This document shows, one piece after another, positions 27,001 through 33,000 of a DNA stretch of 64,000 nt. Each line of letters opens with the position of its first letter. Within the stretch, counting starts at the first letter, position 1. The position numbers were made by a program. The stretch comes from a virus. Its lineage: Duplodnaviria > Heunggongvirae > Uroviricota > Caudoviricetes. Location of the stretch: the IMG/VR virus record IMGVR_UViG_2684623171_000009, one strand, 5' to 3'.

Positions 27001-30000
27001 AACCAGCTGCGCGACCAGACCTCCGAATCACTTGAGCAACTTACTCAACAAAATCTGACAGCCTGGATGATTGACGTCATACGCCATGTAATGAATGGCA
27101 CGCAGGAGCGGGAATTATCGCTGGCTGAATTATCCTGGTGGGCAGTCTGCAATCAGGTGGTGGACGCATTACCTGAGGCAGTATCGCGTCGCTCTCTGGG
27201 ATTACCGGCGGAAAAAATCCGCTCCGTATACCGTGAAAGCGACATCATACCGGGAGAACAGACCGCCACCAGCATACTGAAGCAGCGCACAAAAAATATT
27301 GCGCTACCGCCTCACACCCACCAGCAACAGAACCCACCACAGGAAAAGACGGTGGTCAGCATTGCCGTTGATCCGGAGTCTCCGGAATCCTTCATGAAAC
27401 GACCTAAACGTCGCCGCTGGGTAAATGAGAAATACACACGCTGGGTAAAGACACAGCCGTGTGCGTGTTGTGGTAAGCCAGCGGACGATCCTCATCATCT
27501 GATTGGTCATGGTCAGGGCGGAATGGGAACAAAATCCCACGATATTTTCACGCTACCGCTGTGTCGGGAGCATCACAACGAGCTTCATGCGGATCCGCTG
27601 GCGTTCGAAGAAAAGCATGGTTCCCAGGTTGATTTAATTTTTCGTTTTCTTGATCACGCCTTTGCAACCGGCGTGCTCGGGTAAAAGAGGTTACTGATGC
27701 GTATAGAGTTTGTTTTGCCTTACCCGCCGACGGTGAACACCTACTGGCGACGTCGTGGCAGCACATATTTTGTATCAAAAGCCGGTGAGCGTTATCGCCG
27801 GGATGTGGCACTTATTGTTCGCCAGCAGCGGCTGAAATTAAACCTGTCCGGAAGGCTGGCGATAAAGATTATTGCAGAGCCACCGGATAAGCGCCGTCGT
27901 GACCTGGACAATATCCTGAAAGCACCACTGGATGCGCTGACGCATGCCGGACTTCTCATAGACGACGAGCAGTTTGATGAAATCAATATTGTGCGCGGCT
28001 AGCTCGTTTCTGGTGGGCGGCTGGGCGTGAAGATTTACAAAATTGAAAGTGAGTGAGCATAAATATGATATACCCGGAAATTACAGGCAAAAGCGGTGAG
28101 CATTTACGCCTGAAAACGCTGGAAAGTGTCTGGATCCAGGGGAAACTGCGTATGTGGGGGCGTTGGTCGTATATTGGCGACGGTAAGACGGGAAATATGT
28201 TCAACCAATTACTGACCTCTAAAAAGCTGACAAAAACGGCAATTAACGAGGCGCTCCGGAGGATGAAAAAAGCGGGTCTGGACAAACCTGAACTTGAGGC
28301 TTTTTTGCGGGATATGATCAACGGCAATCAAAAAAGCTGGCTGGCACATTGTACCGATTCAGAGGCGTTAATAATCGATAGGGTTATTGGTGAAGTACTG
28401 GCAGGTTATCCCGGGCTGCTCAATGTTCTGAGTCAGCGTTATGTGGGGCGGGGGATGACTAAGCGCAAAATGGCTGAATTGCTGAATGATGCTCATCCGG
28501 AATGGAGTTTAAGAACCTGTGAAAGACGCATTGAGCATTGGCTAAAGGTGGCAGAATTTATTTTGTACAAACCAATGGTTATGGCTTTTGGTATAGAGAA
28601 AAAAGTTATTGCTTTTTGACGTAAAAACTGCTTCAATTCCGGTAAGCTTCGCAAAGCTGTACCGCGAGGCGAATAGCAGACATGGACATTTGAAAGAGCC
28701 CGCTTTTTGCGGGTTTTTTTATGACTGAAAAACGGCACGGGGCGTTAAACGCGCTGGTGGTTGCTAATACCGGTCTTTCAACTTGCTGGCTTTTTCGACA
28801 AGAGTTATTGGTATGTCACGTTAACCGGAAAAGGGAAAAAGACATGCTAAAACAGCAGGATATGACAGAAACCGCCAGAGTGGTGTTTAATGAATTAAGC
28901 GTTACCGAACCGGCGACAGTCGGGGAGATTGCGCAGAATACTTACCTTTCACGCGAACGCTGCCAGTTAATACTGACCCAGCTGGTTATGGCGGGTCTGG
29001 CAGACTATCAGTGCGGTTGTTACAGACGCATTCAGTCCTGAAGGCTTTTTATTTGTGGTAAATGGGCGGCTGGTGGGGGGGGCGGCACCTGTCAGTCCTT
29101 TGCTTATGTGTTGATGATAATTTACCTTTTGGGGCTATAATTGAGCTAACCAATTGCTAATGAAAGTAAAATTATAATGGCTGTTGTCTGTTCAGTTATC
29201 ATGGTTTGCTCCCCAATTAATATTTTTCTTGAAAAGGATACGTTGTCACTTAAGCCAGGCTCAGTCGTTCTGGCCACCAAATGCATCAGGGAGCTTTTCC
29301 TTATGCATTATGGCAAAGTTAAAATTGTCGATATAAGCGAATCCGTCGTAAGTCAATATCTGGAAAGTCAGCATAAGCTGACGAGGACTCGTCTGACTGA
29401 CATTCCGCTTTACCTGTTGCTGGAACCCAACAATCCTGCGTTGGCTGCGGCTTTAATTACCAGCCAGGGATTTTCCGGAGAGGTCACGGATATGTTTCTT
29501 ATGATGGCCTGCCTGTCTCTGTTTGAAACAGATGAACGGATGTCATTGTTTTTAAGTGGATGTTTATCCAGCATAAGTGCCAAAGTCAGGGCGATAATTC
29601 AGACAGATATATCAGCAAGCTGGACGCTTGGTGCGATTGCTCTACAGTTGCATATGAGTGAGAGTTTGTTAAAGACAAAACTGAAAAATGAAGGGGGCAT
29701 GTTCAGTCGCTTGTTGCTGGAAGAGCGGATGCGTGTTGCTGTAAATATGTTATGTTCCCGGTATGGATATGGACAGGCTGTAGCAGAAAAATGTGGTTAT
29801 TCAAGCCGGTCCTACTTTATTTCTGTATTTCACCGCTATTATGGCTTCCCGCCAGACAGATATGTATCCAGGCAAGGGCTTGATTATTGATTTTCATCTG
29901 ATTATTATTTTTTGGCTCGGCCCTTTAGCTCAGTGGTGAGAGCGAGCGACTCATAATCGCCAGGTCGCTGGTTCAAATCCAGCAAGGGCCACCATCACAA

Positions 30001-33000
30001 ACCGCCATTAGCTTATCAGGAAGAGCAGACGACACCATAACAGGGTTGTTGGTGCGGGGCCGCGTCCCCGATGGCGGTCCATTATCGGTATTCTGCGTTG
30101 TTAGCTCAGCCGGACAGAGCAATTGCCTTCTAAGCAATCGGTCAGTGGTTCGACTCCACTACAACGCGCCACACTTATTTTCCAGGCTCGCTTCGGCGGG
30201 CCTTTTTTGTATCTGCGCCACGCCCGGCGCATACCAACCACAGAGCCTTTCGGGGGTGAGCTTACGGAGTGGTCAGTGTGACTTTCTCTGTGGGCAGATC
30301 GCTCCCGGGCGTTGGCTCACCCACCCAAAGGAACGTCACGATGTTTGGAATCTTCAAAAAGAAAACCCGCAGAGCGGCAACGGAAATTAAAAAGTTTGAA
30401 AAACGCGATCTGGCACAGGTGGTGATTAACGCCGCATACCTGGTGGCCTGTGCAGATGGTGAATGTGAGGCATCCGAGAAAGCGAAGATCGAACAGGTAC
30501 TGCGTAATCAGCCTGCGCTGTCCGCGTTTACGTCAGAAATTAATGCGATTAGCGCAACCATTATCGGTCAGCTGGATACGAACTTTAAAACTGGTCGTCG
30601 TGCGGCGTTACGTGAGATTGAGGATGTGAAACACGATACGCGTGAAGCGGAAGATGTGCTGGATGTGGCGGTGGCCATTGCGGAGGCAGACGGCGAAATT
30701 GAGCCGGAAGAGCGCAAGGTGCTGGAAGAGATTGCCGGTGTTCTGGGTCTTCGTCTGGAGAATCACCTGTGACGGTAAAACTGCGCCTGGCTGTGGCTGC
30801 ACTCCTGCTGTTTCTGGTGGTGATGGTGGATTTCACCAGCAGAATCATGTCGGTGCTGGCGGATGGGGTGCTGGTCTGCGGCATTGTGGTATTGCTGTGG
30901 CCGGTGATAAAAAGAAACAGCCTGCATAATGCTTGATTTTTTTGTTTGCTGTTTATTAAAAACACTTCTGCATGGTGAATCCCCCTGTGCGGAGGGGCGA
31001 TCAGCAACCAGGTATATGGGATAATCGCGGATTCAGGTGCTGATACTGAATTCACCGGGAGGCACCCGGCACCATGCTTTGCCACAAAAGTGTTGTTTCT
31101 GTTTTTCTCAAACTATCATCGTTATCCCTTTATTTCCGGCTGCGCATGGCGCGGCTTTTTTTTACGACCAGCCACTGGCAGATGGTCATCCTGTGATTTG
31201 ATTCCGGTTCCGGCTTTTTAACTCTGTTCCTGTACACGGGAGAAATTCGATGTCGATTAAACATTATGATGTTGTCAGGGCGGCGTCGCCGTCAGACCTT
31301 GCGGAAAAGCTGACACACAAACTGAAAGAGGGCTGGCAGCCGTTTGGTAGTCCGGTGGCCATAACCCCTTATACCCTGATGCAGGCGATTACAGCAGAAG
31401 GTGATGTGGTGGTCAGTGGTGCAACTGAGCCGGATTGGTACTACGTCATCGTACTGGCCGGGCAGTCCAATGCCATGGCTTACGGTGAAGGGCTTCCGCT
31501 GCCGGATTCATACGATGCTCCGGATCCGCGCATTAAACAGCTGGCGCGCCGCAGTACAGTGACGCCGGGTGGGGCTGCCTGCAGATATAACGATATTATT
31601 CCGGCCGACCACTGCCTGCATGATGTGCAGGATATGAGTACGCTGAATCATCCGAAGGCAGACCTGAGCAAAGGGCAGTACGGCTGTGTCGGCCAGGGGT
31701 TACATATTGCCAAAAAACTGCTCCCGTATATCCCGAATAACGCGGGGATCCTGCTGGTACCATGCTGTCGTGGTGGTTCGGCATTTACCCAGGGCGCGGA
31801 GGGGATATTCAGCGAGTCCACGGGGGCCAGCCAGGATTCGGCGCGCTGGGGTGTGGGTAAACCGTTATATCAGGACCTGATTGCGCGCACCAAAGCTGCA
31901 TTACAGAAGAACCCGAAAAATGTGTTGCTGGCGGTGTGCTGGATGCAGGGAGAGTTTGACATGAGCGCCGCCACCCACGCACAGCAACCTGCGCTGTTTA
32001 CAGCCATGCTGACACAGTTTCGTGCTGACCTCTCCGTGTTTAACGCGCAGTGCCATGGTGGCAGTGCTGCAGATGTGCCGTGGATTTGTGGTGACACGAC
32101 GTATTACTGGAAAAATACATACGCTACCCAGTACGACACCGTGTACGGCGGGTATAAAAACAGGGAGAGTGAGGGCGTTTATTTTGTGCCCTTCATGACA
32201 GACGGTAACGGCGTCAATACCGCCACTAACGCGCCGGCAGAAGATCCGGATATTCCGGCATCAGGATATTACGGTGCGGCATCGAGAACGAATGGAAACC
32301 AGGTATCATCAAACCGCCCGACACATTTCAGTTCATGGGCGCGCAGGAGCATTATTCCGGATCGTCTGGCAACCGCTATTCTGAACGCAGCCGGGCGCAC
32401 CTCAGCCTTCATCAGTGGTAAGGCACCGGAAATCAAACCCTCGCCCGGCGGCAACACGCCATCGGGTCCGTCTGCAGATACGTCCGTTCGCACAATCTCC
32501 CTGCTGCCGGCAGCCGGAGAGGCTGCTGCGCAGGGCTGGAGCATTAAGGATGGCGGAATTCAGTTGTCAGATGGTGTATTTAAGATCACCAGGCAGAGCA
32601 ATAAAACCTGGTCCCTGACGCATCCGGTGGATGACGCAATTACCCTGCTGACACAGGGCGGCAGACTGACCTGTAAGTTCCGCCTGTCAGGCGCACTGAC
32701 CAACAATCAGTTCGGGCTGGGGATTTATCTGTATACGGACGCTCCCGTTCCTGATGGTGTGGCGATGACGGGTACCGGTAATCCGTTCCTGATGTCGTAC
32801 TTCACTCAGACCACTGACGGCAGAGTGAATCTGATGCATCACAGGAAAGCCGGAAACACGAAGCTGGGGGAGTTCGGCGATTACGGTAACGACTGGCAGA
32901 CGCTGGAGCTGGTGTTCACCGCCGGCAGTGCCACGGTTACTCCGAAACTGAATGGAGTGGCTGGCCCGGCATTCCAGGTTATAAAAGACAGTCTGACACT

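Follow-up and report, generated by a model that had tools for sequence, protein, structure and literature searches.

The late-operon cargo slot of Escherichia coli O157:H7 prophage CP-933O: tciA-tciB at the position of stx2AB among exchangeable modules

Introduction

The late region of lambdoid prophages in enterohaemorrhagic Escherichia coli (EHEC) contains a slot that holds Shiga toxin (Stx) genes in some phages and other cargo in their non-toxigenic relatives. This is textbook EHEC prophage biology, and review literature covers the moron concept for the late region of both Stx and non-Stx lambdoid prophages. Here we describe this slot in a 64,000-nt stretch of Caudoviricetes DNA (IMG/VR record IMGVR_UViG_2684623171_000009; hereafter, the window), where it lies between a Q-like late antiterminator gene and the nanS-p and holin genes and carries two regulator genes, a tRNA cluster, the gene pair tciA-tciB and a small RNA (sRNA).

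The closest described systems are the late regions of Stx2 phages (Stx2a_1447, AP012536; phiSTEC1575-Stx2k, OQ243220; 933W type). Like the window, they show the succession of Q, a terminator, a gene for a 65-aa protein, a variable gene and the tRNA genes ileZ-(argN)-argO, followed by a hairpin, the cargo, an sRNA of the STnc100 family, nanS-p and a holin gene. The STnc100-family copy located 3′ of stx2B has been reported as EcOnc27/sRNA103, an Hfq-bound RNA, or as STnc_100 (PMC11774850, PMC12711010, PMC12370729). Its relative EvrS, encoded 5′ of a nanS-p gene, destabilises the z2269 mRNA and lowers LEE (locus of enterocyte effacement) expression. Among the prophage-encoded regulators, PsrB is reported to bind the gadE and hdeA promoters, to activate both and to raise acid resistance (reviews PMC10877973, PMC8565820). 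It also lowers LEE type III secretion indirectly, via GadE and YhiF, and shares approximately 90% identity with its paralogue PsrA (PMC10877973, PMC8565820).

Two further systems are relevant to the cargo. The tciA-tciB-tciC/trnI genes of the P1 ban operon and of D6-like phage-plasmids resemble the pair in the window (TciA 41% and TciB 50% identity), with tRNA-Ile2(CAU) and other tRNAs adjacent (PMC6799933); the names tciA and tciB in the P1 genome annotation were assigned by homology. The TerB proteins of ter operons (Klebsiella TerB, PDB 2JXU; IncHI2 and O157 ter islands) share the PF05099 family and paired ADG...E motifs with TciA. In the opinion expressed in PMC8421299, TerB alone is not expected to confer tellurite resistance.

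Results and Discussion

Identity of the locus and position of the cargo

Comparisons of both DNA and protein assigned the whole window to the E. coli O157:H7 prophage CP-933O (O-island 57, OI-57). Positions 28000-31300 (3.3 kb) matched three FRIK genomes of E. coli O157:H7 with 100% identity and EDL933 (NZ_CP008957.1, 1904097-1907397) with 99.9% identity, as they did many further O157 genomes, and the exact-sequence cluster of the Q-like protein included an entry named 'unknown protein encoded within prophage CP-933O'. Of 5426 complete E. coli genomes, 464 contained 80% or more of this 3.3-kb segment. An earlier reading made from the sequence alone (the sequence-only reading) had listed an ordered series of elements between Q/tR′ and nanS-p/holin. 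Each was recovered at or near its proposed place using Pfam, ARAGORN, Rfam and RefSeq (Table 1), and the RefSeq annotation gave equal coordinates for all the listed open reading frames (ORFs) and both tRNAs.

Taken as a whole, the interval is very probably an accessory ('moron') slot in the late operon of lambdoid CP-933O, built as a chain of independently exchanged modules. The locus is already known and was correctly read: PsrB, the ileZ/argO-type tRNAs, tciA/tciB, STnc100/EvrS, NanS-p and the Q-tR′ switch have all been previously described or annotated.

The position of the cargo was defined by blastn against Stx2a_1447, which was homologous to the window at 28709-29077 and 29915-30219 and then again from 30952. 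The intervening gap (30220-30951) comprises tciA-tciB in the window and stx2A-stx2B in Stx2a_1447. Because homology ends at 30219 and restarts at 30952, tciAB is, at the sequence level, an exact positional replacement of stx2AB. The proposal that these genes lie where Stx phages carry stx therefore proved literal. The accompanying statement that stx-like A/B ORFs are lacking was likewise borne out, as tblastn of Stx2A and Stx2B against the entire window returned only short chance matches (best E 0.49) and no Stx A/B homologue. The blocks common to the window and Stx2 phages had 88-92% DNA identity, with ileZ identical. The differences are a cargo of tciA-tciB instead of stx2AB, a Q protein of the DUF1133 type, a decayed argN and the variable gene, which is psrB in the window and a DNA methylase gene in the Stx2 phage; a Psr homologue is also found in the Stx2k phage. 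Directly 5′ of stx2k, this phage carries the same small winged helix-turn-helix gene, the Psr homologue (91.6% amino acid identity) and three tRNAs.

Other related loci showed further arrangements. JLK-2012 has the order Q, tRNAs Asn/Thr/Gly, tciA, tciB and nanS-p, whereas the EvrS-type locus of O157 has a psrA-type gene, three tRNAs, the sRNA and nanS-p, with the cargo position empty. Across 80 E. coli prophage loci from IMG/VR, the slot modules occurred in many combinations, indicating that the slot is modular. tciAB and stx2AB have the same tRNAs on one side and the same sRNA on the other, an example of the exchange of toxin and non-toxin cargo through recombination in conserved flanking DNA. 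In addition, PsrB, rare-codon tRNAs, the sRNA and NanS-p tie such prophages to acid resistance, virulence regulation and mucin use of the host.

Table 1. Features of the late-operon slot of CP-933O, with positions in the window
Feature	Position	Strand	Evidence
Q-like late antiterminator, Z2102 of EDL933 CP-933O	28053..28619 (RefSeq start ATG 28065)	+	DUF1133 family
Presumed PR′ leader and tR′-like intrinsic terminator	28620..28720 (stem ~28691-28720, then T-run)	+	RNA fold
65-aa stand-alone winged-helix protein, first ORF 3′ of tR′	28844..29041	+	phrog_331; AlphaFold2 (AF2)
Sigma-70 promoter-like site, ATGATA-16-TATAAT, 36 nt 5′ of psrB	29114..29141	+	Consensus scan, 10/12
psrB (Z2104), AraC/XylS-type regulator, GadX/YdeO type	29177..29890	+	Pfam; primer match
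tRNA-Ile2 (CAU), ileZ type	29919..29994	+	ARAGORN; Rfam, 72.5 bits; RefSeq tRNA-Ile
Decayed argN (tRNA-Arg UCG) remnant	~30001..30081	+	In-register alignment with Stx2a/Stx2k argN
tRNA-Arg (UCU), argO type	30095..30171	+	ARAGORN; Rfam, 67.3 bits; RefSeq tRNA-Arg
Terminator-like hairpin and T-run after the tRNAs	30184..30209	+	Terminator scan; alignment; blastn junctions
tciA, 143-aa TerB-domain protein	30341..30772	+	Pfam TerB; phrog_632; PDB 2JXU
tciB, 55-aa DUF3927 (PF13064) protein	30769..30936 (GTG start)	+	Pfam; phrog_1470; hydropathy
STnc100-family sRNA, paralogue of EvrS and EcOnc27/sRNA103	30941..31113	+	Rfam RF02076
Terminator-like hairpin, T8 run	31138..31164 (hairpin 31138-31156)	+	Terminator scan; fold
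nanS-p (Z2108), sialate O-acetylesterase, downstream slot boundary	31250..33100	+	Pfam DUF1737, SASA, DUF6645

Q-like antiterminator and late read-through

The protein at the upstream boundary matched Pfam DUF1133 (3.7e-105), Phage_antitermQ (33.1 bits; cut-off 26) and phrog_753, 'anti-termination protein Q-like' (5.8e-81). Its gene contains the Z2102 primer of PMC4763077 when the sequence is read by eye. At 70-100 nt past its stop codon, a 13-bp stem followed by a U-run folded with a minimum free energy of -29.9 kcal/mol (z -3.18). The proposed pairing of a Q-like antiterminator with a tR′-like terminator was thus supported by both the protein matches and the hairpin. Between 28600 and 28690, no promoter-like site passed the consensus scan, and only a weak TTGCTT-17-TTCAAT could be seen by eye.

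Following the lambda paradigm and published Stx-phage transcriptomics, Q would act at a promoter just 3′ of its own gene. Without Q, transcription would halt at the tR′-like hairpin; with Q, the polymerase would pass both this hairpin and the one behind the tRNAs and go on to transcribe the cargo, nanS-p and lysis genes, leading to expression of the cargo on induction.

An Rfam match to isrK on the PR′-tR′ leader (28646-28719, + strand) reached only 19.8 bits against a gathering threshold of 50 (E 0.94) and was treated as chance. This 74-nt stretch extends up to the tR′-like terminator, where Stx phages make a short PR′ RNA (StxS); the position is suggestive, although the match is probably fortuitous.

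Regulators of the slot

The 65-aa protein was assigned to phrog_331 (3.9e-37), and its Pfam matches to winged helix-turn-helix families (TrmB, MarR_2 and DprA_WH) were all sub-threshold. The AF2 model had a mean predicted local distance difference test score (pLDDT) of 91.0 and comprised three helices and a beta-hairpin wing (H4-16, H26-33, H37-49, E53-56 and E59-62). Foldseek searches of the PDB retrieved winged helices of IclR, MarR and O-methyltransferase (OMT) proteins, with TM-scores of up to 0.84 to IclR-type domains. The modelled fold can thus be described with confidence as a generic minimal winged helix. The label 'PapI-like', given in the sequence-only reading, did not hold, and membership of the PapI/FaeA family was rejected: no FaeA/PapI Pfam match was found at E<=0.1, the PDB sequence search gave no match, and PapI was outside the top 50 Foldseek PDB matches. 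The DNA carrying this gene (28709-29077) had 89% identity to the Stx2a_1447 phage, which places the gene, by sequence, in the conserved backbone common to Stx2 phages. In IMG/VR loci, it was seen both with and without psrB.

The AraC-family ORF matched HTH_AraC (2.9e-13, 50.0 bits; cut-off 26.6) and HTH_18 (2.4e-9, 37.8 bits; cut-off 33.6) over residues 155-230. Its best NCBIfam similarities were to YdeO (2.1e-30) and GadX (9.2e-25), both well under the equivalog cut-offs. The published Z2104 primers for HReVAP (high-resolution virulence allelic profiling; PMC4763077) had exact, single matches in the window at 29437-29456 (+) and 29575-29594 (-). Because both primers match exactly and uniquely inside the ORF, it is identified by sequence as Z2104, the gene studied as psrB (OI-57/CP-933O). 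The host cross-talk that had been suggested for this regulator is consequently on record, in the form of the reported gadE/hdeA activation and indirect repression of type III secretion. The promoter-like site upstream of psrB is a consensus match only, and such sites in the region were not above shuffle expectation; psrB is probably driven by its own promoter.

PsrB was 91% identical to the AraC protein encoded at the EvrS-type (PsrA-type) locus of O157 strain PV15-279, in agreement with the identity reported for the two paralogues. Literature based on older assemblies assigns psrA (z1789) and EvrS to CP-933N/OI-50. In EDL933 NZ_CP008957.1, the prophage inserted in potB/potC (1629367-1675087) has a slot consisting of Q, a tciA pseudogene with an internal stop, tciB and nanS-p. 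A PsrA-type gene did turn up in the EvrS-type locus of PV15-279. Paralogous prophages that differ between assemblies or strains may account for this mismatch in the placement of psrA and EvrS.

The tRNA cluster

Both predicted tRNAs, Ile2 (CAU) and Arg (UCU), were confirmed as cloverleafs by ARAGORN and Rfam. The CAU tRNA was identical over its full length to the gene annotated as ileZ in Stx2a_1447 (AP012536), and its acceptor stem contains the pairs C4-G69 and C5-G68 (read from the sequence), which are TilS determinants. The ileZ match and the RefSeq call establish an Ile rather than a Met identity at the sequence level. After lysidine modification, this tRNA is predicted to read AUA, and tRNA-Arg(UCU) is predicted to read AGA/AGG. 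Relative to argO, the latter has a compensatory base-pair change in its T-stem and one altered base in its T-loop; since the T-stem change is compensatory, the sequence argues that the tRNA-Arg structure is under selection.

The set of two intact tRNAs stood as proposed, but a third, decayed member between them had been overlooked. The argN remnant retains the acceptor stem but no longer shows the T-loop consensus, and its anticodon arm is rearranged. The differences from the argN of Stx2 phages are concentrated here, and the remnant gave no ARAGORN call and no Rfam match at E<=1. Elsewhere among E. coli prophages, the middle tRNA position is occupied by Arg(TCG) or Lys(TTT) or is empty, and it appears to be fast-evolving. 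The hairpin that follows the tRNAs is conserved 5′ of stx2A in Stx2 phages.

In the ORFs of the window, ATA, AGA and AGG occur at 10.8, 6.1 and 4.3 per 1000 codons, respectively, rates two to three times as high as is usual in E. coli. The gene richest in rare codons is an AT-rich ORF with a DUF4765 domain (60670-63210, - strand, 846 aa), which has 40 ATA and 18 AGA among its 847 codons and is a likely beneficiary of the prophage tRNAs. This codon use fits the accepted view that prophage tRNAs supply rare-codon decoding for prophage genes. In CP-933O, tRNA-Ile2(CAU) and tRNA-Arg(UCU) would accordingly decode the frequent AUA and AGA/AGG codons, the third tRNA (argN) having decayed.

In the comparison with JLK-2012, homology starts within a tRNA 3′ end, with window positions 30147-30171 (tRNA-Arg) aligned to 4501-4525 of the JLK-2012 stretch (tRNA-Gly). 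The alignment suggests that tRNA 3′ halves could serve as recombination junctions for the exchange of cargo modules.

The STnc100-family sRNA and the nanS-p boundary

An STnc100-family sRNA, a paralogue of EvrS and EcOnc27, would follow tciAB in the proposed order of the late transcript, starting right after the tciB stop codon. The sequence-only reading had the elements of the island right but ended it just short of this RNA, which it overlooked. The copy scored 104.7 bits against RF02076 (gathering threshold 47) and retains the core helices; the family's own 3′ hairpin is essentially absent. The EvrS 5′ cloning primer (CATGGTGAATCCCCCTGTGC) corresponds to window positions 30971-30990 when the sequence is read by eye. 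Approximately the first 125 nt are common to the window sRNA and the EvrS-type locus, whereas the 3′ third differs. The described STnc100 sRNAs (EvrS of EDL933, EcOnc27/sRNA103 and PasD) share with the window copy the RF02076 family and a position immediately 5′ of nanS-p (PMC11774850, PMC12711010, bioRxiv 10.64898/2026.05.13.724894). In contrast to these relatives, the window copy is without the 3′ terminator hairpin and has a divergent 3′ third. Other members of the family are encoded 75 nt behind stx2B in Stx2a_1447 and, in the cargo-less EvrS-type locus of O157, behind argO. The hairpin with the T8 run further downstream is likely the 3′ end of the sRNA or of a cargo transcript in the lysogen.

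NanS-p is annotated in RefSeq as 'SASA family carbohydrate esterase' and is followed by a class II holin. The published Z2108 primer coordinate (PMC4763077) maps inside this gene by arithmetic from the Z2104 offset. Rfam gave no match at E<=1 to an AgvB-, AsxR- or PasA/C-type sRNA between nanS-p and holin. RefSeq also lists a frameshifted partial pseudogene ('hypothetical protein', ~31131-31273, - strand) overlapping the sRNA terminator region and the start of nanS-p.

TciA and TciB: family assignment and distribution

TciA exceeded the Pfam cut-off for TerB (PF05099; 53.4 bits, cut-off 24.4) and matched phrog_632 (1e-68) and, over residues 15-137, the TerB structure 2JXU (E 2.9e-7). The TerB-like fold that had been proposed is therefore well supported. 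The N-terminus is basic (net charge +6 over residues 1-24), and two ADGxxxxxE motifs are invariant in five phage homologues. The small ORF behind it, TciB, was also recovered with its GTG start and membrane character, although its length is 55 aa and not 51 aa as first estimated. It matched Pfam DUF3927 (4.3e-17, 62.3 bits; cut-off 25) and phrog_1470 (4e-30), and its hydropathy profile has two peaks corresponding to two hydrophobic helices, followed by a basic C-terminus. The GTG start of tciB overlaps the tciA stop (GTGA, read in the sequence), and this overlap indicates that the two genes are coupled in translation.

Diversity of TciA homologues was taken from the phage collection and single-protein scans, as the related-locus comparison gave close E. 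coli relatives only. A TciB-like ORF was found directly 3′ of tciA in 224 of 227 viral loci, including all 224 enterobacterial ones; the three exceptions were Pseudomonas PMBT3-type phages. In P1, tciA-tciB-tciC lies beside tRNA-Ile2, 3′ of the C1-operator-controlled ban promoters. The pair is located inside a tRNA cluster in Erwinia jumbo phages (e.g., ChrisDB), directly between Q and the holin/endolysin genes in LMessi and Klebsiella phage 1 LV-2017, and it also occurs in the N4-like phages FSL SP-076 (Salmonella) and Pollock and in Pantoea LIET2. TciA-TciB thus extends over P1, N4-like, jumbo and lambdoid phages, and its 'tellurite resistance' annotation is purely by homology.

The neighbouring tRNAs vary (Ile2/Arg, Asn/Thr/Gly or Trp/Cys/Tyr/Gln). 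When TciA proteins were grouped by single linkage at 75% identity, one cluster had a tRNA no more than 1 kb from tciA at 71 of its 80 loci (89%; 26% expected by position), and the other at 73 of its 144 loci (51%; 12% expected). TciA proteins of the P1-like type and many of the lambdoid-like type fell into one cluster, and these figures rest on few independent lineages. The adjacency of tciA-tciB to tRNAs above positional expectation is therefore to be taken as a lead only.

The window differs from P1 in several respects: P1 has a third small ORF, tciC, has the genes under ban promoters controlled by C1, not in a late operon controlled by Q, and shows a different order relative to the tRNAs. 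It also differs from ter operons, because terZ, terA, terC, terD and terE appeared neither in the ORF list nor among the RefSeq features of the surrounding 15 kb, and the partner of TciA is a 55-aa DUF3927 hairpin, not TerC.

Proposed role of TciA-TciB and alternative explanations

We consider that TciAB would most likely work through tethering of TciA to the inner membrane by TciB, and that the pair would act in lytic growth by conditioning or protecting the membrane of the infected cell; both steps are inferred. Four observations speak more for such a lytic-cycle role than for lysogenic conversion or tellurite resistance: virulent phages carry the pair; in P1, it lies 3′ of C1-operator-controlled promoters; no other ter genes are nearby; and tciA is preceded by a terminator-like hairpin instead of a promoter-like site, the consensus scan having found no sigma-70-like site between the post-tRNA terminator and tciA. 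A fuller version of this idea is that TciAB is a hairpin-tethered TerB module serving the lytic growth of both temperate and virulent phages, which keeps the membrane intact and energised against pore-forming insults (colicins, abortive-infection effectors or superinfecting phage) until the holin fires, and that its placement in tRNA clusters marks co-selected host-independence or counter-defence cargo and is not due to chance. We offer this version tentatively, and taken in full it is rather unlikely.

Several points weigh against our reading of the slot and its cargo. The literature that was searched gave no experiment with a TciA or TciB from any phage, and no functional study was found on TciA/TciB, DUF3927, Z2107 or ileZ/argN/argO. 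In EDL933, the CP-933N tciA is interrupted by an internal stop and thus a pseudogene; this lysogen, at least, can do without the gene. The numbers of promoter-like and terminator-like sites in the region were no higher than in shuffled sequence, and Q dependence, the psrB promoter and a tRNA promoter at this locus are carried over by analogy. Finally, psrA was published as a gene of CP-933N, a prophage without an AraC gene in the current assembly of EDL933; this discrepancy does not touch the identity of psrB in the window.

Alternatively, TciAB might be a lysogenic-conversion or defence module expressed in the lysogen, conferring resistance to tellurite or pore-forming colicins or superinfection exclusion, as in ter operons. 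Membership of the TerB family, the PHROGs category of both genes ('moron, auxiliary metabolic gene and host takeover') and the occupation of the same slot by the conversion genes stx2AB in related phages are consistent with this explanation. However, the pair is carried by N4-like and jumbo phages, which are strictly virulent and form no lysogen that could be converted, and the P1 promoters, the isolation from terZ, A, C, D and E, the hairpin without a promoter-like site 5′ of tciA and the CP-933N pseudogene speak against it as well. The defence function suggested in the sequence-only reading for the TerB-like and membrane proteins found no support in PADLOC-DB, where the six slot proteins gave no significant match and only two marginal ones at E >0.003 (SWIM_XIII and PDC-S48, the latter without a qualifying stretch); the best value was E 0.005. 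We therefore regard this module as a doubtful explanation, and a tellurite-resistance or lysogenic-conversion function is probably not what TciAB provides.

A second alternative assigns TciB a holin- or antiholin-like function and TciA that of a cytoplasmic regulator, the pair tuning lysis timing together with the adjacent lysis cassette. With its length of 55 aa, two hydrophobic helices and basic C-terminus, TciB would have a topology like that of class II holins, the pair shares a late transcription unit with the holin gene at 33549 in the window, and its position in LMessi and Klebsiella phage 1 LV-2017 is next to the lysis genes. Nevertheless, the window has a separate canonical class II holin at 33549-33755 (Phage_holin_2_1, 7.3e-33), TciB had no holin-family match in Pfam or PHROGs, and the pair is remote from lysis genes in N4-like, jumbo, Pantoea and P1 phages, where its neighbours are early, nucleotide-metabolism or tRNA genes. 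A role in lysis timing is thus decidedly improbable compared with membrane conditioning during lytic growth.

That the island has no present function and is carried by a cryptic prophage as inert, decaying cargo, as the decayed argN, the lost 3′ hairpin of the sRNA, the RefSeq pseudogene fragment at ~31131-31273 (-) and the paralogous tciA pseudogene at another site in EDL933 might suggest, is far-fetched given five intact ORFs conserved at 99.9-100% over many O157 genomes, the compensatory change preserving the tRNA-Arg T-stem, the published phenotypes of PsrB (PMC10877973, PMC8565820) and the carriage of at least 80% of the segment by 464 of 5426 complete E. coli genomes.

Other features of the prophage

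Outside the slot, Rfam identified a sok antitoxin RNA (25451-25625, + strand, 113.5 bits) beside a RefSeq Hok/Gef gene and a DicF RNA (18190-18241, - strand, 75 bits). A gene for a PerC-family (Pch-like) regulator lies 3′ of the lysis cassette at ~36600-36920 (+ strand; 14609-14923 in locus L001) and represents another host-directed regulator in CP-933O.

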